40,000 nt of DNA, from positions 17,221-57,220 of the forward strand of contig NZ_AOMB01000006.1 of assembly GCF_000336675.1 (NCBI RefSeq), in the 5' to 3' direction. This DNA is from Halococcus hamelinensis 100A6. Lineage in GTDB: Archaea; Halobacteriota; Halobacteria; Halobacteriales; Halococcaceae. The notes beneath the pieces were generated by a model, which saw nothing but the letters and a program-made list of their open reading frames with translations, was not told where the DNA came from and made no database searches. The position numbers were made by a program, and so were the translations under genes. Below, piece after piece: positions 2,796 to 19,996 of the stretch; the first letter of the stretch is position 1; every line of letters begins with the position of its first letter.

Positions 2796-3323
2796 CTACG
2801 ACCGCGTCGCGCTCCAGACCCGGTCCCGGCGGCCGTCGGTTCCGGCGTCGGCCGCCACCGACCTCGTTCGAGCCGTGGTACACGAGAGTCCCGCCTCCGA
2901 CATCAGCCGGCGAACGTGCCGTCGGCAGTACTCCACGTCGAAGGTCTCCCCGATGTATCGCTGTGCCAGGGTCGTCGTCCACGCTGTGGCGTCGTAACCG
3001 ACCGCCGTCGGTGAGTCGTGGAGTGCCGCCGCGAGTTGGTCCGACTGGTCCGGCGAGAGCGCCCGCGACTGTCCGGGTTTGGGGCCGCGTTTCTCGTCGT
3101 AGAGCACCTCCTCGGGGGGGTCGGTTTCGAGCCGGTCGAGTCGGGCGAGCCAGTTGTGGACGGTCCCCTCCGAGACGCCGTAGCGCGAGGCCAGCGTGGG
3201 CTGGGTAACCGACTCCTCCTTGTAGTTGAGCGCGAGCATCAGGCGCTGTGTCGGTCGTTTACCCTCGACGTCGTCCAGCAGGGCACGGAGTTCGTCGGCG
3301 GTCACGTTCTCGAGGTGGGGCAT
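2796..3323 (-). CDS. Stand-alone IS630-type transposase N-terminal HTH domain protein (no DDE domain follows)
   Basis: 175 aa. Two HTH-like segments (PTQRLMLALNYKEESVTQPTLASRYGVSEGTVHNWLARL and TAWTTTLAQRYIGETFDVEYCRRHVRRLMSEAGLS) are typical of the N-terminal DNA-binding part of IS630/Tc1-like transposases. No DDE catalytic ORF is visible downstream in any frame. It is a paralog of 19514..19996. Confidence 0.7.
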   Translation of the reverse strand: MPHLENVTADELRALLDDVEGKRPTQRLMLALNYKEESVTQPTLASRYGVSEGTVHNWLARLDRLETDPPEEVLYDEKRGPKPGQSRALSPDQSDQLAAALHDSPTAVGYDATAWTTTLAQRYIGETFDVEYCRRHVRRLMSEAGLSCTTARTRSVAADAGTDGRRDRVWSATRS

Positions 3324-8475: not shown

Positions 8476-9186
8476 TCAGTCCACGTGCTCCCCGTAGAGT
8501 GCCGACCGGTCGACGATGTTCTGGACGGTCGTTCTCGTGACCCCCGCCAGTTTCGCGGTCGAGCGCTTGCTCTTGCCGTCGCGGAGTCGTTCGATGACCA
8601 GGAGCGCGGTGTTGAAGTCGTCGTTGGGAACCAATCGTCCGTTCTCGCTGTCGAAGCCGTACGGGGGCCGACCGACGTGTTTGCCGCTCGCCTTCGCGGC
8701 GTGGATCCCCTCGCGCGTTCGTTCCGTGCTCACCGACGCCTCGATATCCGCGGCGATCGATAGCCCCTGTAGTATCGCGCTCTCGTCGGGGGAGTCGGTT
8801 CCATCGGCGCGAGCCGTCCCCTGCTCGCCCAATGCGAGACCGATGTCGAGGATGTGGAGCGCGACCCCCGCATCGAGGAGCGTCTCGACGAACTCGTTGA
8901 AGTCCACGACCGTCTTCGCGACGCGAGCGGCATCGGTGACGATGACCCGGTCTACTGCCGTCGCAGCGATCCGGTCGAGCATCGTTTGATAGCCCGACGA
9001 CTGGTCGGCACGCGCTTCCACGCCCTCATCGACGAACACCGAGACGTCGTTCGGGTCGAGGTCGAAGTTCCGTTCGGCGTAACTGAGGATTTGCTCGCGC
9101 TGGTTCGCTCCCCTCCCCGTACTAACGACGCGGACATAACCGATGGTCGCCTTTTCTCTCGTATCTCCGCCACTATCTACTGCCAT
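8476..9186 (-). CDS. Serine-recombinase (resolvase/invertase) family protein with C-terminal HTH and divergent catalytic motifs
   Basis: 236 aa. The N-terminus IGYVRVVSTGRGANQREQ resembles the YxRVSTxxQ nucleophile motif but carries insertions. The C-terminal HTH is RSTAKLAGVTRTTVQNIVDR, preceded by GRPPYGF. It is flanked on both sides by AT-richer non-coding DNA. Confidence 0.75.
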   Translation of the reverse strand: MAVDSGGDTREKATIGYVRVVSTGRGANQREQILSYAERNFDLDPNDVSVFVDEGVEARADQSSGYQTMLDRIAATAVDRVIVTDAARVAKTVVDFNEFVETLLDAGVALHILDIGLALGEQGTARADGTDSPDESAILQGLSIAADIEASVSTERTREGIHAAKASGKHVGRPPYGFDSENGRLVPNDDFNTALLVIERLRDGKSKRSTAKLAGVTRTTVQNIVDRSALYGEHVD

Positions 9187-9472
9187 CGATCAACGTCTGT
9201 TGACGGTCTCGGCTGCTGCTGATATGTGCGTTGCGAATAACCACGGCCCGACAGGCCGTCCGCATCGGTTTTTGGCATCGGTTACCATTGATTACCAAGG
9301 CCTGTATTTAACACAGGGGTTATTAACACCCTGCCGGTACAAGCCGATGTGCTATTCGCCTACTATTCCGATACACCGTACGTCTCTCTCGATGCTGCGG
9401 TGACCGACACGTCAAGGGAGGGTGCTAGAAACCAATGTTTACAAATACTCGATTGATGGACGGGGGTATGCA

Positions 9473-10639
9473 ATGACTGGCGATCGAGGGTCGGCCTCGA
9501 CGCGACGGAACGTCCTCCGTGCCGGGGCACTCGCGGGGGTTGGAGCACTTTCGGGATGTATCGGAGCCGGAGCGACGACCGGGCGAGAGCTGACGATCGG
9601 CTATCAACCGTACTACGCGGAGGCGTGGTCCGCCGTGGTGATAAAGAACGCCGGGCTGGCCGAGGAGTTCCTCCCCTCGGGCTACTCGGTCAAGAACTGG
9701 GACTCCGCGCTGCAGGGGTCGATCGTCGGGACGCGAATGATATCGGGGAAGAACCAGGTCGGCTACACGGGCGATATGCCGACGATCACGGCGATCGCGA
9801 ACGACAGCACCCCGATCAGCGTCGTCGGTCTCGCGGGCTACTCGGAGGGCCAGCAGTGCAGCCTCGCGGTGCGACCCACCGGTTCGGGGGTGACGAACGT
9901 CCAGCAGATGGACGGGCGCGACGCCGCAGTCACGACCGGGAGCTGTACGCATCGGTTCTACCTCAACGTCGTCGAACAGACCGGCGTCCAGCCGAACCTC
10001 GTCGACAACTCGATCGGGAACATCCTGGCCGAGATCCGCCAGGGCTCGCTGCCGGTCGGCTTCGGCTGGGAACCGAACATGGCCCGAACGGTCTACCAGG
10101 AGGACGCCGCCGAGTACTTCATCAGCGGTTCGGAGTTCGATACCGGCGACGCGGCGGGGATCATCATGCCGGATTCGTTGATCGAGAACGACCGAGAGGC
10201 CGCGATCGGCTGGCTCAAGGCCGAGCTCAGGGCCAAGGAGATCATGGCCAACGACCACGAGCGCACGCTCGACCTCGTCGCCGAGGAGGGCGACCTCGCG
10301 ACCTACGACCGGGACGTCCTGCGCTCGTGTCTCTACGAGAGCCTCCGGCTCGACCCCTCGACCAATCGGCTCGAACTCATCACGGACTACGCGGCCGTCC
10401 CACAGGCCAACCGGTTGATGACCCAGCAGGGCCCGCGATTCCTCCAGGAACAGGGCGCTATCTCCGCGCTGCCGGCCGATTCGAGATACAAGCCCGGACT
10501 CACGAAGACGGCGGCCGACGAACTCGGCGTCGGGACCGGACTCGACCGCTTCGGCGGGTCGAACGGATCGAGTGGGTCGAACGGGTCGAATTCGAGCGCG
10601 GCAGGGGCGAACGCGAGCACGTCCGGGGACGGACGATGA
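9473..10639 (+). CDS. ABC transporter substrate-binding lipoprotein, NitT/TauT (NMT1/THI5-like) family, Tat-exported
   Basis: ATG at 9473 (MTGDRGSASTRRNVLRAGALAGVGALSGCIGAG) gives a twin-arginine motif plus a lipobox Cys. The body resembles nitrate/sulfonate/taurine/HMP-type binding proteins. The C-terminal tail GGSNGSSGSNGSNSSAAGANASTSGDGR is low-complexity and holds five N-X-S/T sequons. The stop overlaps the next ATG (ATGA at 10636-10639). Confidence 0.8.
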   Translation: MTGDRGSASTRRNVLRAGALAGVGALSGCIGAGATTGRELTIGYQPYYAEAWSAVVIKNAGLAEEFLPSGYSVKNWDSALQGSIVGTRMISGKNQVGYTGDMPTITAIANDSTPISVVGLAGYSEGQQCSLAVRPTGSGVTNVQQMDGRDAAVTTGSCTHRFYLNVVEQTGVQPNLVDNSIGNILAEIRQGSLPVGFGWEPNMARTVYQEDAAEYFISGSEFDTGDAAGIIMPDSLIENDREAAIGWLKAELRAKEIMANDHERTLDLVAEEGDLATYDRDVLRSCLYESLRLDPSTNRLELITDYAAVPQANRLMTQQGPRFLQEQGAISALPADSRYKPGLTKTAADELGVGTGLDRFGGSNGSSGSNGSNSSAAGANASTSGDGR

Positions 10640-11484
10640 GCACGCAGTCGTTCTCCGAGCGGTTGCTCGGCGACCGGGCGGGCCTCGGCGTTCCGCGTCG
10701 AGTCGTCCAGCTCGGGTCGGTGCTCGGGTTCCTCGTCGTCTGGTGGGCGCTCGTCCGGTTCGGCGTCCTCGGCTTCGAGTACCTGGCCGGCCCGGTCGAG
10801 ACGGGGACGAACATGCTCGCCTATCTCGCCGGCGAACCGATGGCGAGCGGCGGGACCATCTATCTGCACGCGGCGTACTCGACCTTTCGCGTCGTGTTCG
10901 GTGTCGGCATCGCGGCGTTGCTGGCCGTCCCGCTCGGGCTCGCGATCGGGACGAGCCAGCGGTTCGAGGACTACACGTTTCCGGCGCTCGAGATCCTCCG
11001 ACCGATCCCGCCGGTCGCCTGGGTCCCGATCAGCGTCCTCCTGTTGCCGGCGCTCGACCTCCTCGGCGTCGAGGTCAGCCTCGCCGTGCTGTTCGTGGTT
11101 TTCATCGGGGCCTTCTTCCCGATCCTCATCAACACGGTCGAGGGCGTTCGCACGATCGAAGAGGAGTACACGCGAGCCGCCCACAGTCTCGGTGCGGAGG
11201 GCCTCCAGGTCTTCCGGTACGTCGTCTTCCCGGCGACGCTCCCGTCGATCCTCACCGGGATATCGATCAGCATCGGGCTCGGCTGGATCACGGTCGTCGC
11301 CGCCGAGATCATCGCCGGCAACTACGGCCTCGGGTACACGATCTTCCAGGCCTACCGCCTCCTCCAGACCGACGTCGTGCTCGTCGGGATGGTCGTGATC
11401 GGCGTGCTCGGCTACGCCTCCTCGGCGCTGGTGAATCGCTACGCCGCACGGCGGATGCCCTGGAGCGAGCGTGAGAGCCGATGA
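10636..11484 (+). CDS. ABC transporter permease (NitT/TauT family, BPD_transp_1)
   Basis: MSTQSFSERLL... is read in the frame of tracked ORF 9556..11484. It is multi-TM and carries the EAA-loop-like block EEEYTRAAHSLGAEGLQVFRYVVFPATLPSILTG. The start is coupled to the SBP stop. Confidence 0.88.
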   Translation: MSTQSFSERLLGDRAGLGVPRRVVQLGSVLGFLVVWWALVRFGVLGFEYLAGPVETGTNMLAYLAGEPMASGGTIYLHAAYSTFRVVFGVGIAALLAVPLGLAIGTSQRFEDYTFPALEILRPIPPVAWVPISVLLLPALDLLGVEVSLAVLFVVFIGAFFPILINTVEGVRTIEEEYTRAAHSLGAEGLQVFRYVVFPATLPSILTGISISIGLGWITVVAAEIIAGNYGLGYTIFQAYRLLQTDVVLVGMVVIGVLGYASSALVNRYAARRMPWSERESR

Positions 11485-11590
11485 CGACGAGGGGAATGCA
11501 CCACGACCGCGTCGCCGTCCCGCCGGCCGCCGGTCACACGACCGTATCGACCATCGAACGAACCACCCAACCGCGAGCGACCAACGACCA

Positions 11591-12466
11591 ATGAGCAACA
11601 CCGACCAGAACACGACCGAGGCTGTGAGCAGTACCGAATCGAACACCGCGGCAGCGAGAAACGGGACGCAGAAGGCCGAAACGGGGGCGATCGAGATCGA
11701 CGACGTCGCGAAGGTCTACGACCCCGACGGCGACCACGTCGTCGCCGTCGAGGACATGAACCTCGACATCGAGGCCAACGAGTTCATCACGATCCTCGGC
11801 CCCTCCGGGTGTGGCAAGAGCACGGTGATGGAGTGCGTCGCGGGCTATCTCGAACCGACCGAGGGCGAGGTCCGCGTCGACGGTACCCGCGTGAACGGTC
11901 CCGACCCCTCCCGGGGGGTCGTCTTCCAGGCCAACCGCCTCTTCCCGTGGTTGACGATCGCCGAGAACGTCCGGTTCGGCCCACGGATGCGGAGCGAGGT
12001 CGACAACGAGCGCGTGAACGGCCTGATCAAGCAGATGGGGCTGGACGGCTTCGAGGACTCCTATCCCCACGAACTCTCGGGCGGGATGCAACAGCGCGCC
12101 GAGCTCGCCCGGCTGTTCGCGAACGACCCGGACATCATGCTGATGGACGAGCCGTTCAGCGGACTCGACGCGATGACCAAGGAGCTGATGCAGGAGGCGC
12201 TGCTCGAGGTCTGGGAGAACGAGAGCCGAACGGTGATCTTCATCACCCACGACGTCGAGGAAGCGATCTTCCTCGCCGACCGGGTCGTCGTGATGAGCGC
12301 CCGGCCGGGTCGAGCCAAGGACGTCCTCGACGTCGATCTCGAACGACCCCGGAGCCTCGATATGATCACGACCGACGAGTTCACCCGCGTCAAACGCCGT
12401 GCGCTCGACCTCATCCACGAGGAAGCCGAACGCGCGATGGAACAGGCCGCGGGACGGGTCGATTGA
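11591..12466 (+). CDS. ABC transporter ATP-binding protein (NitT/TauT family)
   Basis: ATG at 11591 (MSNTDQNTTEA...). It has Walker A GPSGCGKST, signature LSGGMQQR and Walker B IMLMDEPFSGLD. VFQANRLFPWLTIAENV is typical of SsuB/TauB/ThiZ-like ATPases. Confidence 0.92.
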   Translation: MSNTDQNTTEAVSSTESNTAAARNGTQKAETGAIEIDDVAKVYDPDGDHVVAVEDMNLDIEANEFITILGPSGCGKSTVMECVAGYLEPTEGEVRVDGTRVNGPDPSRGVVFQANRLFPWLTIAENVRFGPRMRSEVDNERVNGLIKQMGLDGFEDSYPHELSGGMQQRAELARLFANDPDIMLMDEPFSGLDAMTKELMQEALLEVWENESRTVIFITHDVEEAIFLADRVVVMSARPGRAKDVLDVDLERPRSLDMITTDEFTRVKRRALDLIHEEAERAMEQAAGRVD

Positions 12467-13548: not shown

Positions 13549-14361
13549 CTACGCTCCGAACCCACCCACCGCGAGGAATCGTTCGTACTCCGGTTCGGTG
13601 AGGCCCGTCTGCCCGAGGTCCCTCCCGTGGGCGTCGCTCCCACCGGTGACGAGGAGGTCGTGGCGCTCGACCGTTCGTCGGTCGCGACCGGAATCGTGGG
13701 CTGGGTTGGACGGGGAGTAGGGGTAGCGACACTCCACCGCGTCCAGTCGGGCAGCCAACTCGAAGACGTCGTCGAGCGCGCCGTACCGATACGGATGTGC
13801 GAGGCTGACGACGTTACACGCCTCCGAGAGCAGTGAAACGCCCCGCTCGAACGAGGGGATCTCGCGCGGGACGTTACAGGGACCGTCGTCGCCGATGAGT
13901 TCGTCGAAGGCGTCCTGATAGGTGTGATCGGTCCCGGGGTGTGCATCGACCGCGCGGGCGATGTGTGGACGACCGATGCCCTCCTCGACCTCGACGTCCA
14001 GCGTGATGTCCAGCTCGCGCTCGACCAGTTCGATGATGCGTGCGCCACGGGTCTTCCGGTCCATCTGAAGGCGGTCGAGCTCGGTACGGAGTGCGGGTGA
14101 CCCCGTCACGCCGTACCCGAGCAGGTCGATCCCGTCGGGAAGCGAATCGACCTCGACGCGGAGTTCGATCCCGTGGATGACGTCGATGCCGTCGACCCGC
14201 ACGAGCGGTGCGTCCAGATCAGGGTGGGTCCTGTCGTGGTCGGTGACGGCGACGGCGGCGAGGCCGGCTTCGGTCGCCGCGGCCGGAACCTCGTCGAGGG
14301 CGAGTTCGCCGTCGGAGTTCGTCGTATGGACGTGCAGATCCGCGTAGACCGGCTCTTTCAT
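13549..14361 (-). CDS. PHP-domain metal-dependent phosphoesterase (COG0613 / TrpH-YciV type); candidate 3',5'-bisphosphate nucleotidase
   Basis: ATG at 14359-14361 (MKEPVYADLHVHTTNSDGELALDEV...AVAVTDHD...GIELR...LAHPYRY...GGSDAHG). The DLHVHTxxSDG, TDHD, GxE, AHP and GSDAHG blocks are the PHP metal ligands. It is transcribed divergently from the sulfotransferase operon. Confidence 0.85.
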   Translation of the reverse strand: MKEPVYADLHVHTTNSDGELALDEVPAAATEAGLAAVAVTDHDRTHPDLDAPLVRVDGIDVIHGIELRVEVDSLPDGIDLLGYGVTGSPALRTELDRLQMDRKTRGARIIELVERELDITLDVEVEEGIGRPHIARAVDAHPGTDHTYQDAFDELIGDDGPCNVPREIPSFERGVSLLSEACNVVSLAHPYRYGALDDVFELAARLDAVECRYPYSPSNPAHDSGRDRRTVERHDLLVTGGSDAHGRDLGQTGLTEPEYERFLAVGGFGA

Positions 14362-14675
14362 TTCGGTCACCGACCGTCCATCGGACCTCCAACCCATTAA
14401 CGGAGCGGATGCTCGGCGCTCGCCCGTATGATCCGCCGACAGCGGCGCGGGAGCGGTGCCTGCAGGCGAAGGCAGCACTCACTTGCTAACTCATCGCAAT
14501 CGTACGGTCGTTCGTCCATTTCGATCGACAACGACTGGCCCGACGCGGGAACCCCTCAGTCACTGTCGGTGTGACGACCGACGATTCTCATGATGACACA
14601 CAGAGCACGCCCGACGAAACCGAGTCAGCAGCCCCGACGACGCGTCGATCCGATGACGACACCGAACGGTGATGG

Positions 14676-15899
14676 GTGGTGAGCAGCGAAGGATCGAGTC
14701 GTCTCCGGGAACGGGCCAGACGGAACTACGGGTACATCGAGCGCGAGGTTATCTCGGAGGGGAAACGCTCGGTCCTCTCGAACCATCGGATCGACGACTT
14801 CGACAGCGTGTTGCTCATCGCGTCCGCCCCGCGGGGCGGCAGCAGTCTCCTCTTCGACGTTCTCCGGCACCACGAGCGGACGTGTAGCCTCGACGGCGAA
14901 CACGACCGATGGTTCATGCTCCACGACCTCTGTTACCCCACGTTCGAGTCGGACGTCATCCCGGCGGACTTCGATTCGTTCGACGGGGAGACCCTCGGAA
15001 GGGACCTCCTCGCCGAGGTCGGGGCGACCGAACGCGCCGGCGAGCACACACATCGCGTGGACAACACGCTCGTCCGACTCCCGTTGCAGTTCCCCGACCG
15101 GGAGCTCCCCTACGAGTGGATACGCGACCGGCTGCTCGACGGCGTACCGCTCGACGAGGTCCTTCGGGAACTCGACATCTCGCCGCTGCAGTACGACGAG
15201 TACGCGACGCGGGACGCCCCTCATCCGCTCGGAAACGAGACGATCGAGGACCGGCCGTTCGTCTCCTCGCACGACCACAAGCGGGCCCTCAGGGAGGACG
15301 ACTTCGAGCGCACGCTCGTCCTGAAGGCGAGCGGCGACGCGTACCGACTCCCGTGGATCCGAAACCAGCTCCTGCCCGAGACCGACGTCACCCTCGTTCA
15401 CCTCACGCGGAACCCGGCGGCGTCGATCAACGGCCTCTACGACGGGTGGCGACTGAACAGGGGTTTCCAGACGTACGACGTGGGCGACCTCGACCTCGAG
15501 GGCTACGACGGCTCGCTGTGGTGCTACGACCTCCCGCCGGGCTGGACCACGGAGGGAGACCTCATCGACGTCTGCCTGCTGCAGTGGCTCCAGGCCCACC
15601 GCCACATCCTCGACGCCCGCGACGCGTTCGACGACGTCCTCCGGGTCCGCTTCGAGGACGTGCTCACCGACACCCCGTCCGTCGTTCAGGAGGTCCTCGA
15701 GTTCGCCGGGCTCGGCGAGTCGGCGCTGCTCTCCGAGAACGTCGACGACCCCAACGAGGTCATGACGACGAAGGAGCCGAGGCGCGCTCGCTGGCGGGAC
15801 AGGGAGGACCTCATCCAGGGGACGCTCGACCGGGCCGACGGGACGTACTCCGAGGTCGTCGAACGACTGGGCTACACGGCGGAGTCCGAATGGATATGA
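14676..15899 (+). CDS. PAPS-dependent sulfotransferase family protein (acceptor unknown)
   Basis: 407 aa, with the start provisionally at GTG 14676 (no in-frame ATG nearby). LLIASAPRGGSSLLFDVL matches the 5'-phosphosulfate-binding loop (P-x-x-G-S/T-S/T). LVHLTRNPAASINGLYDGW matches the 3'-phosphate-binding R-x-P-x(5)-S motif. Confidence 0.8.
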   Translation: MVSSEGSSRLRERARRNYGYIEREVISEGKRSVLSNHRIDDFDSVLLIASAPRGGSSLLFDVLRHHERTCSLDGEHDRWFMLHDLCYPTFESDVIPADFDSFDGETLGRDLLAEVGATERAGEHTHRVDNTLVRLPLQFPDRELPYEWIRDRLLDGVPLDEVLRELDISPLQYDEYATRDAPHPLGNETIEDRPFVSSHDHKRALREDDFERTLVLKASGDAYRLPWIRNQLLPETDVTLVHLTRNPAASINGLYDGWRLNRGFQTYDVGDLDLEGYDGSLWCYDLPPGWTTEGDLIDVCLLQWLQAHRHILDARDAFDDVLRVRFEDVLTDTPSVVQEVLEFAGLGESALLSENVDDPNEVMTTKEPRRARWRDREDLIQGTLDRADGTYSEVVERLGYTAESEWI

Positions 15900-16078
15900 G
15901 CGAGCGAACGACGACCACGAGGGTCACACCCACGACGGACGAGCCAGCCCGGACGACCCGGGACGCATCGACTGTCGAGCCGGCGCCGACGGAGGCGTAC
16001 ACGCACGAACCCCCCGTCAGTGAGCTTGGGGGAGGAGTGGGAGGAACTCTCCTCCCCACGGGAGGGGGAGATCCGTGA
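15890..16078 (+). CDS. 62-aa Thr/Pro/Glu-rich micro-protein, translationally coupled at both ends (hypothetical)
   Basis: MDMSERTTTTRVTPTTDEPARTTRDASTVEPAPTEAYTHEPPVSELGGGVGGTLLPTGGGDP. The ATG at 15890 (and 15896) overlaps the sulfotransferase stop (ATGGATATGA). Its TGA (16076-16078) overlaps the next ATG (16078). By hand count 45 of 62 codons end in G/C, 36 of the first 43. The ORF exactly fills an otherwise unexplained 178-nt gap in an operon whose other junctions overlap. Confidence 0.45.
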   Translation: MDMSERTTTTRVTPTTDEPARTTRDASTVEPAPTEAYTHEPPVSELGGGVGGTLLPTGGGDP

Positions 16079-16965
16079 TGGGTGACACCCTGTGGCTCTT
16101 CGGGCTGCCCTGTTCCGGGAAGACGACGCTCGCCGAGGGGTTGGTCGGTCCGAGCACGGTCCATCTCGACGGGGACTACCTCCGGAACACCCTGAGTTCC
16201 GACCTCGGGTTCTCGAAGGCGGACCGGACCGAGAACCTGAGGCGGGCCGCCGGGGTCGCCCAGGCGTTGAACGAGCAGGGGTTCGACGTCGTCGCGTCGT
16301 TCATCACCCCCTATCGGTCCCAGCGGGAACTGGTCGCCGAGGTGGTCGAGAACGTCTCGTTCGTGTTCGTCGACACGCCGCTCGAAGTCTGTGAGGAGCG
16401 TGACGTGAAGGGGATGTACGAGCGAGCCCGTCGGGGCGAGATAGAGGGCTTCACCGGTATCGACGCGCCGTTCGAGGGGCTGGCGAGCGACGAGGCCGGG
16501 CTCGAAGTCCGAACGGCGACGAACTCGAAGGAGCGGATCATCGCGGAGATCAACGAGACGCTGGACCGCAAGCTCGATCCGAGCCACGTCTTCATCGGTC
16601 GTTGGCAGCCGCTCCACGACGGCCACCGGACGATCATCGACTCGGCCGCCGACAACGGGAAGGACGTCGTCATCGCGATCCGTGACACCGAACTCAGCGA
16701 GAAGAACCCGCTCACCGCACAGGAGCGCCGGGACCTGATCGAGACGGTCTACGAGGACCACCCGAACGTCGAGACCATGATCGTCCCGGACATCGACACC
16801 GTCGCCATCGGACGGGACGTCGGCTACTCCGTCGTCGCGGTTCCCGAGGACATCTCCGGGATAAGCGGCACGGAGACCAGGGAGAAGTACGGGAAGAGCG
16901 AACTCCTCGAAGGGCGACACTTCAGGGAGCGATCGGTCGATACGCGGCTTCCCGACCATGAATAG
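16078..16965 (+). CDS. cysC: Fusion protein: N-terminal adenylyl-sulfate (APS) kinase plus C-terminal NMNAT/cytidylyltransferase-like nucleotidyltransferase domain
   Basis: The N-terminal ~165 aa carry LFGLPCSGKTTLA (P-loop), LDGDYLR, DLGFSKADRTENLRR, SFITPY, VDTPLEVCEERDVKGMYERARRGEIEGFTGIDAPFE, collinear with CysC. The C-terminal ~125 aa carry VFIGRWQPLHDGH (the GRFQPxHxGH motif of archaeal NMN adenylyltransferases), KNPLTAQERRDLI and ISGTETRE (ISxTxxR motif). A GTG at 16075 is an alternative start. Confidence 0.85.
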   Translation: MGDTLWLFGLPCSGKTTLAEGLVGPSTVHLDGDYLRNTLSSDLGFSKADRTENLRRAAGVAQALNEQGFDVVASFITPYRSQRELVAEVVENVSFVFVDTPLEVCEERDVKGMYERARRGEIEGFTGIDAPFEGLASDEAGLEVRTATNSKERIIAEINETLDRKLDPSHVFIGRWQPLHDGHRTIIDSAADNGKDVVIAIRDTELSEKNPLTAQERRDLIETVYEDHPNVETMIVPDIDTVAIGRDVGYSVVAVPEDISGISGTETREKYGKSELLEGRHFRERSVDTRLPDHE

Positions 16966-17701
16966 GACGGGGCTGCTGTTCGACCAGCCGGAACTGGAGG
17001 ACGCGATAGCAACGGACGAGTTGCTCGATTGGAAGGAGAAACGGTACCTCGAGTTCAGGGAGACGATGCGGAACTCCCGGTACCCGTGTTACTTCGCGGT
17101 GAACGCCGAGCGGGACGACTCCGCCCGATACCTGTTCGCGGAGAACGCCCGTGACCGTGATACGCTTCTCAAGATACGGGAGGGGCTACAGCAGTACCTC
17201 CAACGGTATCGCTCCATCGCCGAACGCACGACCCTCGTCATCTTCTTCGGGCCCGCCGCCGAGGAGCGGAGCGAGCGCGACTACCACGAGCAGTTCTGGA
17301 GGGTGCTCGAGTTCCTCCACCGGCGGGACCCGGAGCCGTGGCCCGCCGACATCCCGACGGAGCCCGACGACCCCGAGTGGGAGTTCTGTTTCGCGGGGGA
17401 ACCGATGTTCGTCGTCGGGCGTGCGCCGTTCTATACGGACCGACGGAGTCGGTACACACCGTATGGGCTCGAGATAACGATCCAACCACGCGAAACCCTC
17501 GACGACATCCGTGGGGACACGGTGGAGGGCCAGCGGATCCGCTCGGTCATCGAGGGCCGGTTGGACGAGTACGACGACGTCGCTCCCCACCCCTCCATCA
17601 GCGATTACGGCGACCCCCACACCCGGGAGTGGAAACAGTACCTGCTCCCGACGTCGAACGAGGAGCGACTGAACGAGTTTCCGTTCGAGATGAACCCATA
17701 G
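16958..17701 (+). CDS. YqcI/YcgG family protein
   Basis: 247 aa. The ATG at 16958 overlaps the preceding stop by 8 nt (ATGAATAG). YPCYFA near the N-terminus and WEFCFAGEPMFVVGRAPFYTDRRSRYTPYGLEITIQPRE match the family signature (WxFxFxGExxFVxxxxPxYxxRxSRxxxxxxxxxFQPR). Confidence 0.8.
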   Translation: MNRTGLLFDQPELEDAIATDELLDWKEKRYLEFRETMRNSRYPCYFAVNAERDDSARYLFAENARDRDTLLKIREGLQQYLQRYRSIAERTTLVIFFGPAAEERSERDYHEQFWRVLEFLHRRDPEPWPADIPTEPDDPEWEFCFAGEPMFVVGRAPFYTDRRSRYTPYGLEITIQPRETLDDIRGDTVEGQRIRSVIEGRLDEYDDVAPHPSISDYGDPHTREWKQYLLPTSNEERLNEFPFEMNP

Positions 17702-19513: not shown

Positions 19514-19996
19514 TTACGGTACCCAGCCGCCGGACTCGTCCGATCCGTCCGAGTCGGTTCGGCGCGCCGGTCGGTAGGAGAGCCCCGCTTCCTTCATCAG
19601 ACGTCGACAGCTCGGTCGCGAGTACTCGACGCCGAAGGTGTCGCGGAGGTAGCGCTGTACCAGCGATGGGTTCCACGCCGAAGCGTCGACACCCGCCTCC
19701 GAGGGGGGCTGCTGGAGGGTCTCCTCGAAGGTCTCACGCTGGTCGGCGGTGAGCTTCCGTGGGCGACCCGAGCGGTCGGCGTCGACGACCGCGTCGGCGA
19801 GCGGCCGTGATTCGAGCCGCATGAGCCAGCTGTAGATGGTTCGGCGCTGGATCCCGTACCAGTCGGCGAGGTCGGTCTGGCTGACGCCGTTCTTGTAGGC
19901 GATCGCCGCGAGAAGGCGCTGTGTGGGTTTCGCCCCGTCGACCTCGTCGAGGGCCGCCTGCAGTTCCTCGACGGAGATCTCGTCGAGATGGTCCAT
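19514..19996 (-). CDS. Stand-alone IS630-type transposase N-terminal HTH domain protein (paralog of 2796..3323)
   Basis: 160 aa. It aligns by eye with 2796..3323 over its whole length (PTQRLL/M.A..YK, ...W(L/M).RL(D/E), A(W/S)(T/N)..L.QRY...TF.VEY.R...RRLM.EAGLS), at roughly 40% identity. There is no DDE ORF downstream. Confidence 0.7.
   Translation of the reverse strand: MDHLDEISVEELQAALDEVDGAKPTQRLLAAIAYKNGVSQTDLADWYGIQRRTIYSWLMRLESRPLADAVVDADRSGRPRKLTADQRETFEETLQQPPSEAGVDASAWNPSLVQRYLRDTFGVEYSRPSCRRLMKEAGLSYRPARRTDSDGSDESGGWVP

Follow-up and report, generated by a model that had tools for sequence, protein, structure and literature searches.

We analysed a 40,000-nucleotide window of the Halococcus hamelinensis 100A6 genome (contig NZ_AOMB01000006.1; 66.7% GC, encoding acidic proteins), in which a single gene at positions 16078..16965 on the + strand joins an adenosine 5'-phosphosulfate (APS) kinase to a small nucleotidyltransferase (NTase) domain, hereafter called the mini-NTase. 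The open reading frame (ORF) call, translation, Pfam and NCBIfam define a product of 295 aa plus the stop codon, with a GTG at 16075 as an alternative start. Pfam identified APS_kinase at residues 2-134 (E=2.5e-43) and CTP_transf_like (PF01467) at residues 171-233 (E=4.4e-9; 37.1 bits against a gathering score of 21), and an AlphaFold model of the full-length fusion had a predicted local distance difference test score (pLDDT) of 84. A first-pass annotation, made from the sequence alone, had suggested that the protein might be a miniature synthase of 3'-phosphoadenosine 5'-phosphosulfate (PAPS), and the motifs that it quoted are all present in the translation: GLPCSGKTT (residues 9-17), LDGD (30-33), DLGFSKADRTENLRR (42-56), FITP (75-78), DVKGMYERARRGEIEGFTGIDAPFE (109-133), GRWQPLHDGH (174-183) and ISGTETR (262-268). 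The database record from H. hamelinensis that is 100% identical to this protein is annotated only as 'adenylyl-sulfate kinase'.

Proteins with the same kinase-NTase architecture and 65-83% identity were found in Halalkalicoccus, Halorarum, Halopelagius, Haladaptatus, Natronococcus, Haloarcula, Haloterrigena, Halocatena and other haloarchaea. Because the two-domain architecture is kept across so many haloarchaeal genera, a frameshift or assembly artefact is excluded, and the fusion is real, conserved and functionally meaningful.

Judged by its sequence and predicted structure, the N-terminal half (residues 1-165; 16078..16572, +) is a canonical, bona fide APS kinase. Its ATP- and APS-binding motifs are complete, comprising the P-loop, LDGDxxR, FSxxDRxEN, FITP (family pattern F(I/V)(S/T)P) and the lid DVKGMY...FTGI (KGxY...FTG). 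The NCBIfam model TIGR00455 (apsK) scored 150.5, above its cut-off of 138.7, and PF01583 scored 148.2 against 21.1. The Foldseek match of the kinase domain to 5cb6 had a template modelling (TM) score of 0.88, a root-mean-square deviation (rmsd) of 1.6 A and 42% identity, and other matches were 2ofx, 1xjq, 1m7g and 7yq1, with the human PAPSS1, Penicillium and Archaeoglobus kinases among them. In an alignment of 54 homologs, R36, F45, R50, K111, G112, F125 and T126 were invariant; the residues that bind APS in solved APS kinases are presumably among them.

Motifs and ancestry of the mini-NTase domain

The core of the mini-NTase spans residues 166-268 (16573..16881, +), as placed by PF01467, profile comparison with the Protein Data Bank (PDB), a separate domain model and Foldseek, and the domain measures ~110-115 aa without any extra domain. 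It carries the HxGH nucleotide-binding signature GRWQPLHDGH (16597..16626, +), whose G, R, P, H, G and H are invariant or almost so in alignments A2, A3 and A4, and ISGTETR (16861..16881, +), the second nucleotide-binding signature of HIGH nucleotidyltransferases, whose S and R are invariant in A2 and A3. The segment IRDT (residues 201-204; 16678..16689, +) includes a family-specific arginine that is invariant in A2 and at least 90% conserved in A3 and A4, and GRDVGY (residues 245-250; 16810..16827, +) represents the family-defining GRxVGY loop, with G, R, V and G invariant in A3. The conserved motifs of the family as a whole are F-I-G-R-W-Q-P-x-H-x-G-H, (I/V)-A-I-R-D-T, N-P-x-T-x-x-x-R, P-D-I, G-R-x-V-G-Y and I-S-G-T-x-x-R. 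The HIGH nucleotidyltransferase fold claimed in the first-pass annotation was borne out by the PF01467 score, by the two signatures and by a structural match to phosphopantetheine adenylyltransferase (PPAT) and nicotinamide mononucleotide (NMN) adenylyltransferase (NMNAT).

The NCBIfam search of the C-terminal part returned NMNAT and PPAT models only, the best being NMNAT and all of them far under their cut-offs; the archaeal NMNAT models TIGR01527 (arch_NMN_Atrans) and PRK01153 scored 33.9 against 181.2 and 41.6 against 127 on the fusion, respectively. When the mini-NTase profile was compared with the PDB, the archaeal NMNAT 1f9a (MJ0541) matched at E=2e-12, PPAT at 5e-6 and glycerol-3-phosphate cytidylyltransferase at 0.02. 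Against 1f9a, the profile aligns over positions 4-72 and 81-102 and leaves MJ0541 76-110 (~34 residues) without a counterpart; ~8 residues (SVAIGRxV) stand in for this segment, at the site of the GRxVGY loop. We presume that the nicotinamide-binding residues of NMNAT sit in the deleted segment. After strand 2, the 'GSA' of NMNAT (GIGSA in archaeal NMNAT) is changed to 'RDT'. Two conserved arginines, one in IRDT and one in GRxVGY, have been gained relative to NMNAT. The domain model (pLDDT 84.7, core >90) overlays PPAT and NMNAT across the first 72-80 residues with an rmsd of ~2 A and diverges in the later part, and the best Foldseek E-values were for PPAT (1od6; 2.5e-4, rmsd 1.7 A, 72 columns). 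The mini-NTase thus resembles archaeal NadM (MJ0541 1f9a; M. thermautotrophicus 1ej2/1hyb) in GRxQPxHxGH, NPxTxxER, SGTxxR and the first three strand-helix units, and differs from it in the replacement of MJ0541 76-110 by ~8 residues, the change of GSA to RDT and the GRxVGY loop. Sequence and model together indicate that the acceptor side of the domain has been remodelled and probably made smaller, with the two arginines gained.

The active-site motifs of the canonical ATP sulfurylase Sat are QxRNPxHxxH and GRD(H/P)AG. In the fusion, GRWQPLHDGH lies in an NMNAT-type context and just the HxxH and GRD elements coincide with these motifs, and there is neither a PUA-like N-terminal domain nor a ~200-aa catalytic domain. 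The window protein gave no PF01747 match at E<=0.1. Weak PF01747 matches were given by 36 of 148 relatives (best E=2e-5); we rejected them as a sign of Sat affinity because genuine NMNATs give them too (2 of 19). Taken on profiles and predicted fold, the mini-NTase is a minimal HIGH transferase derived from archaeal NMNAT, and a reduced Sat is ruled out. The idea of a domain smaller than Sat and separate from it has stood, with NMNAT ancestry added by profile and fold; the likeness of the domain to Sat in these two respects is no greater than that of a genuine NMNAT. By membership, the protein is an APS kinase joined to a new PF01467 subfamily, with both the Sat and the NMNAT assignments failing; at source, the members of this family are annotated as APS kinase, PPAT, NMNAT or not at all.

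Linkage of the mini-NTase to APS kinase

We scanned IMG/VR, where at least 336 viral contigs carry a mini-NTase and 80 loci were examined, and GTDB with one genome per species, where at least 501 relatives were found and the 80 loci examined consisted of 61 with a full-length mini-NTase and 19 that matched just the N-terminal two-thirds. The latter were genuine NadM/NadR-type NMNATs, haloarchaeal ones included. A phmmer search against 1.84 billion representatives gave at least 858 mini-NTase matches (50%-identity clusters), and the 148 best were analysed. The mini-NTase was found in phages, commonly in sulfation cassettes, in bacteria of the Candidate Phyla Radiation (CPR), in DPANN and Poseidoniales archaea, in haloarchaea and in SAR11.

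Of the 80 viral mini-NTase loci, 78 have an APS kinase that either is fused to the NTase or is its immediate neighbour on the same strand, and one of the two exceptions was truncated by the contig end. Among the cellular loci, an APS kinase was fused or adjacent in 57 of 61 with a full-length mini-NTase and in 0 of 19 with a genuine NMNAT, a difference in neighbourhood that also separates the family from NadM. PF01467 was detected in 144 of the 148 best representatives and APS_kinase as well in 73. The search for the same architecture in other genomes that had been proposed with the annotation recovered fusions in both domain orders and adjacent separate genes: in a 54-sequence alignment, the kinase-NTase order was found in haloarchaea and some lysine-rich non-halophile sequences and the NTase-kinase order in Omnitrophota-like and many metagenomic proteins, a search with the NTase-only profile returned 1,713 mostly standalone proteins of 104-135 aa, and on a ~1-Mb CPR-like contig (L004) a standalone mini-NTase gene and a standalone APS kinase gene share 4 nt. 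The linkage to APS kinase extends across phages, CPR bacteria, archaea and SAR11 and is far tighter than the sequence alone had shown.

These data bear on the reading in which the C-terminal domain is a genuine adenylyltransferase of NMN or nicotinate mononucleotide whose fusion to CysC is unrelated to sulfur. Its closest solved relatives are indeed archaeal NMNATs, with GRxQPxHxGH and NPxTxxER common to both, and some family members are annotated as NMNAT at source; nevertheless, the TIGR01527 score of 33.9 against 181.2, the ~34 missing scaffold residues and the fact that genuine NMNATs, haloarchaeal included, are never beside an APS kinase make this reading hardly credible. Haloarchaea have separate normal NMNATs (L158, L161).

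In the reverse scan of 80 lid-containing viral APS kinases, 35 were accompanied by a mini-NTase, 3 by cysD and cysN-cysC, none by both and 42 by neither. We considered a mutual exclusivity of mini-NTase and CysDN around viral APS kinases and rejected it, the numbers (35, 3 and 0 with both) being too few for significance. With 78/80 and 57/61 in one direction and 35/80 in the other, the linkage is one-way: the NTase needs the kinase, which is often alone. Such one-way dependence is expected if the product of the NTase is the substrate of the kinase.

The mini-NTase and a short kinase are also conserved in ~45 SAR11 genomes (L103-L150; for example 9567-10348 of L146, Ca. Pelagibacter sp. HIMB1495) in a syntenic region of DMGDH, ETF, ETF-QO, Rieske oxygenase and creatinase-like genes. 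In marine metagenomes, the SAR11 mini-NTase forms at least 7,961 clusters at 90% identity; in three SAR11 loci (L113, L114 and L134) it was found without the kinase. Smith et al. (2016) described Ca. Pelagibacter ubique as being without cysDNCHIJ and sat, and their Table 3 lists cysC, cysQ and aprA for the same five SAR11 strains (PMC5069961). The short kinase beside the SAR11 mini-NTase is plausibly the 'cysC' of that study.

The mini-NTase might instead act after the kinase, on PAPS, 3'-phosphoadenosine 5'-phosphate (PAP) or APS, or it might run APS and pyrophosphate (PPi) to ATP and sulfate. The same one-way dependence would be equally predicted if it consumed the product of the kinase. SAR11 strains are reported to have aprA, cysC and cysQ and to be without sat (PMC5069961). 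In such strains, the APS could come from AprBA. However, no HIGH nucleotidyltransferase is known to act in such a manner on a nucleotide with a 3'-phosphate, PAPS already has its consumers in the sulfotransferases, and aprBA was not found beside the SAR11 pair in the region examined, which encodes DMGDH, ETF and ETF-QO. The reverse direction is moreover the same enzyme activity as an ATP sulfurylase and not a true rival to it. We regard a role downstream of the kinase as quite improbable.

The partner genes are variable. Short (~140-150 aa) partner kinases at L004, L008, L010, L016, L025, L060, L094, L100, L104 and L146 keep the P-loop, LDGDxxR and FSxEDR and are without the RDxKGxY...FTGI lid. 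In several phages (L030, L031, L045 and L052, ~9024-9983), a 320-aa fusion of APS kinase and a HAD-type hydrolase lies directly upstream of the mini-NTase, and in the 432-aa protein P0415 a mini-NTase is combined with a weak match to DHHA1, a family that includes pAp phosphatases and pyrophosphatases. The HAD-type or DHHA1 partner could be a PAP phosphatase or a pyrophosphatase, and we count the DHHA1 fusion in favour of the sulfurylase role proposed below. In P0386, P0394 and P0461 (~375 aa), the mini-NTase is preceded by a ~245-aa N-terminal region without a Pfam match, a third fusion partner.

A mini-NTase that served as a non-catalytic or regulatory nucleotide-binding partner, acting as an allosteric sensor or structurally replacing the kinase lid, could complete the active site of the lid-less kinases that are frequent in CPR bacteria, phages and SAR11, and there is a precedent in fungal ATP sulfurylase with its non-catalytic APS-kinase-like domain (1i2d and 1m8p are among the matches of the kinase domain). 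On the other hand, hundreds of divergent members keep HxGH, ISGTxxR and further residues with little or no change, as is typical of an active enzyme, and the kinase in the window has a complete lid of its own, so that we consider a purely regulatory role distinctly unlikely.

Sulfotransferases and the haloarchaeal cassette

Upstream of the fusion, at 14676..15899 (+), lies a sulfotransferase-like gene of 407 aa that matches Sulfotransfer_3 at 6.4e-8, above the gathering score, and in whose product PRGGSS (residues 52-57) and TRNPAASINGL look, by eye, like PAPS-binding loops. Downstream, a gene of the YqcI/YcgG family (16958..17701, +; PF08892 at 2.6e-73) begins with an ATG that overlaps the stop of the fusion by 8 nt, which indicates that the two form an operon. 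Its product matched PDB 9ubb, 'YqcI/YcgG family protein AglA', at 9e-41 and the NCBIfam model of GntA, the pre-guanitoxin N-hydroxylase, at 2.7e-15, under the cut-off of that model.

A homolog of the sulfotransferase, likewise of 407 aa, immediately precedes the fusion in Halorarum, Halopelagius and Haloarcula, so that this gene is its constant partner in haloarchaea. The whole three-gene cassette of sulfotransferase, fusion and YqcI/YcgG gene is found again in Halorarum salinum and Halopelagius longus, each time at an unrelated place in the chromosome, and in Haloarcula amylovorans the first two genes are kept and a 286-aa protein and an argininosuccinate-synthase-like enzyme take the place of YqcI/YcgG. 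The fusion sits in a sulfation cassette without sat or cysDN, and the absence of a canonical ATP sulfurylase from the window, noted in the first-pass annotation, was upheld; neither Pfam on ORFs supported by third-position GC content (GC3), nor the signature motifs, nor phmmer with real CysD and CysN sequences detected a canonical Sat or CysD/CysN in the window. The signature motifs of Sat were likewise absent from 3.9 Mb comprising the window and 253 loci, and the phmmer queries located CysD/CysN beside a mini-NTase in one locus, L095.

Outside haloarchaea, sulfotransferases were present in 31 of the 80 viral mini-NTase loci, along with glycosyltransferases and epimerases. At the Omnitrophota-like locus L001, two sulfotransferases, a DDAH/ADI-type enzyme and radical-SAM enzymes lie beside the pair, the gene order at L008 is sulfotransferase, NTase, CHR-type anion transporter and kinase, and at L006 a putative sulfotransferase, read by eye, is immediately upstream. 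PAPS-type sulfotransferases are a recurrent third partner of the kinase/mini-NTase pair. In the viral loci, a ~292-aa family without a Pfam match (e.g. 6002-6880 of L070) recurs about as often, adjoining the pair in 32 of 80.

The mini-NTase might instead activate an acceptor that carries a phosphate (a sugar phosphate, glycerol phosphate or phosphorylated precursor of the cassette product, for example) to give an NDP-linked intermediate in the synthesis of the very glycan or natural product that is sulfated afterwards, a reading that covers the alternative of the first-pass annotation in which the acceptor molecule is adenylylated. Characterised PF01467 enzymes other than Sat all use phosphate esters, glycosyltransferases and epimerases mark many of the viral loci as glycan clusters, the NTase at L006 and L038 has a sugar-nucleotide setting and no kinase, and at L095 CysDN is already beside the fusion. 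Acceptor activation leaves unexplained, however, the near-constant pairing with APS kinase, even at the CPR locus L004, where the neighbours are housekeeping genes without any glycan genes, and in the minimal haloarchaeal cassette; the ~34-residue deletion from the NMNAT scaffold argues for a smaller acceptor and not a larger one, and glycerol-3-phosphate cytidylyltransferase matched at just E~0.02. We consider acceptor activation rather unlikely.

With regard to what is sulfated, several hints point to guanidino or arginine compounds, namely the AglA and GntA matches, the argininosuccinate-synthase-like gene of Haloarcula and the DDAH/ADI-type enzyme of L001. The haloarchaeal cassette (window 14676-17701; L003, L172 and L170) appears to target guanidino or arginine-type chemistry, and from these sequence matches a sulfated N-hydroxy-guanidino metabolite would be a plausible product.

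A PHP-domain phosphoesterase gene (13549..14478, -; PDB matches 3e0f and 2yb1) is divergent from the sulfotransferase gene. Its best NCBIfam model was 3',5'-nucleoside bisphosphate (pAp) phosphatase at 4.6e-19; with a score of 68.6 against a cut-off of 400 and no conservation beside the cassette elsewhere, we did not retain it as the PAP phosphatase of the cassette beyond a possibility. Just ahead of the cassette, 9422-12466 (+) encodes an ABC importer of the sulfonate/taurine/nitrate type with an SsuA/TauA-like binding protein, a TauC/SsuC-like permease and an ATPase. We rejected it as a sulfate importer and left it out of the proposed system, its components being SsuA/TauC/NitT-like, unlike CysPTWA, with all scores under the equivalog cut-offs. 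Two insertion sequence (IS)-type helix-turn-helix (HTH), transposase-like genes and a serine resolvase gene occupy 2796-3323 (-), 8476-9186 (-) and 19514-19996 (-). This gene order suggests that the transporter, the PHP gene and the sulfation cassette, flanked by the IS-type HTH and resolvase genes, may form a mobile island.

A candidate miniature PAPS synthase

In known PAPS modules, such as PAPSS, Sat-CysC, CysDN-CysC and nodPQ-nodH, a sulfate adenylyltransferase is paired with an APS kinase, and a sulfotransferase is often nearby. We propose a sulfurylase role for the mini-NTase because two members of such a module, the kinase and the sulfotransferase, are in place, no canonical sulfurylase fills the remaining slot and a catalytically intact adenylyltransferase of the same superfamily is joined to the kinase. 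In the proposed pathway, sulfate would attack the alpha-phosphate of ATP in the mini-NTase to give APS and PPi, a step suggested by the gene context, the lost internal NMNAT segment and the gained arginines. The APS kinase domain would then phosphorylate the 3'-OH of APS to give PAPS, which is the well-supported step, and, as the gene context suggests, the 407-aa upstream sulfotransferase would consume the PAPS, with an acceptor probably made or modified by the downstream YqcI/YcgG enzyme. Fusion or tight pairing would hand the thermodynamically unfavourable APS straight to the kinase, as in metazoan PAPSS, Sat-CysC and CysN-CysC.

From the sequence evidence, we lean slightly towards the mini-NTase being a non-orthologous ATP sulfurylase that would make the fusion a miniature PAPS synthase. 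We give an even chance to the broader claim that it forms a third class of ATP sulfurylase, recruited independently of Sat and CysDN, and that with the APS kinase it constitutes the smallest known PAPS synthase. If the mini-NTase adenylylates sulfate, its ancestry would imply an independent recruitment within the HIGH superfamily.

Several observations weigh against a sulfurylase. By sequence profile and predicted fold, the mini-NTase groups with NMNAT and PPAT and not with Sat, and no ATP sulfurylase was found among the PDB profile matches at E<=10 or among the top 50 Foldseek matches. The C-terminal third that bears GRxVGY is the least confident part of the models, with a pLDDT of 72-87 when the domain is modelled separately and 64-78 when the whole fusion is modelled. 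Many biosynthetic clusters have cysC alone and use the housekeeping ATP sulfurylase, so the absence of sat from 20-kb neighbourhoods is weak evidence. In SAR11, the kinase is a lid-less protein of 136 aa with C1- and osmolyte-catabolism neighbours and without a sulfotransferase at the loci, and because of this context and the lid-less kinase, distant members may differ in substrate. Finally, at L095 (Acidobacteriota metagenome-assembled genome DATGWN010000087, 5120-13620), cysD and cysN are divergently adjacent to an NTase-kinase fusion in a cluster that also holds an ABC exporter and a sulfotransferase-glycosyltransferase fusion, an arrangement that would seem redundant were the NTase a sulfurylase. 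The GRxVGY arginine is a histidine there, the single such case among the full-length members checked. This change is consistent with relaxed constraint or decay of a superseded domain where a canonical sulfurylase is present, although the case is single and readable either way; the presence of cysDN can equally mean that the function of the NTase differs from that of CysDN.

Compared with known systems, the fusion is like metazoan PAPSS1/2 in joining an N-terminal APS kinase and a C-terminal HIGH-superfamily adenylyltransferase in a single polypeptide, and the kinases are homologous (2ofx, 1xjq), whereas the C-terminus of PAPSS is a canonical ATP sulfurylase of ~400 aa (PF01747 and PUA-like) and that of the fusion is ~115 aa and of NMNAT/PPAT kin. 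If the NTase activates sulfate, the pair would parallel Sat-CysC and CysN-CysC (Aquifex 2gks, NodQ, M. tuberculosis CysNC, 1zun) in having both steps in one protein or operon, often near a sulfotransferase; the viral loci L185, L189 and L209 carry the canonical CysN-CysC version. Unlike these proteins, the mini-NTase is neither Sat nor part of a CysD/CysN GTPase system, being a fraction of the size and without a GTPase subunit. The succession of a small HIGH adenylyltransferase and a P-loop kinase acting on a 3'-OH recalls PPAT and dephospho-CoA kinase in bifunctional CoA synthase, except that the kinase here is of the APS-kinase family and the neighbours are sulfotransferases and not CoA-biosynthesis genes. 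HldE/RfaE likewise joins a kinase to a PF01467 adenylyltransferase of ~130 aa, but its kinase is ribokinase-like, acts on a sugar and works before the transferase, while the one here is a nucleotide 3'-kinase; a heptose-type context was found at one locus, L038. Full-text literature searches found no description of the APS kinase/mini-NTase pairing, and a survey of archaeal fusion proteins does not list it. What appears to be new, on the sequence evidence, is a PAPS-synthase-like system with a non-orthologous miniature first enzyme that is widespread and mis-annotated.

Should the mini-NTase turn out not to be a sulfurylase, a nucleotidyltransferase so tied to APS kinase would still be an unexplained enzyme pair, and an easily testable one. 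If it does activate sulfate, the family would show how a nucleotidyltransferase can be redirected to an inorganic oxyanion by the loss of one segment of its NMNAT scaffold, and a PAPS synthase of ~290 aa would be an attractive component for regenerating PAPS in biocatalytic sulfation. A self-contained module leading from sulfate through PAPS to sulfated glycans would be present in hundreds of phages. Metabolic reconstructions that score sat or cysDN would overlook a widespread route, and lineages now scored as lacking it, SAR11 included, would gain a sulfate-activating capacity. In SAR11, the mini-NTase would supply the missing link to AprBA and CysC and would be a candidate answer to the puzzle of an 'orphan cysC, no sat'.

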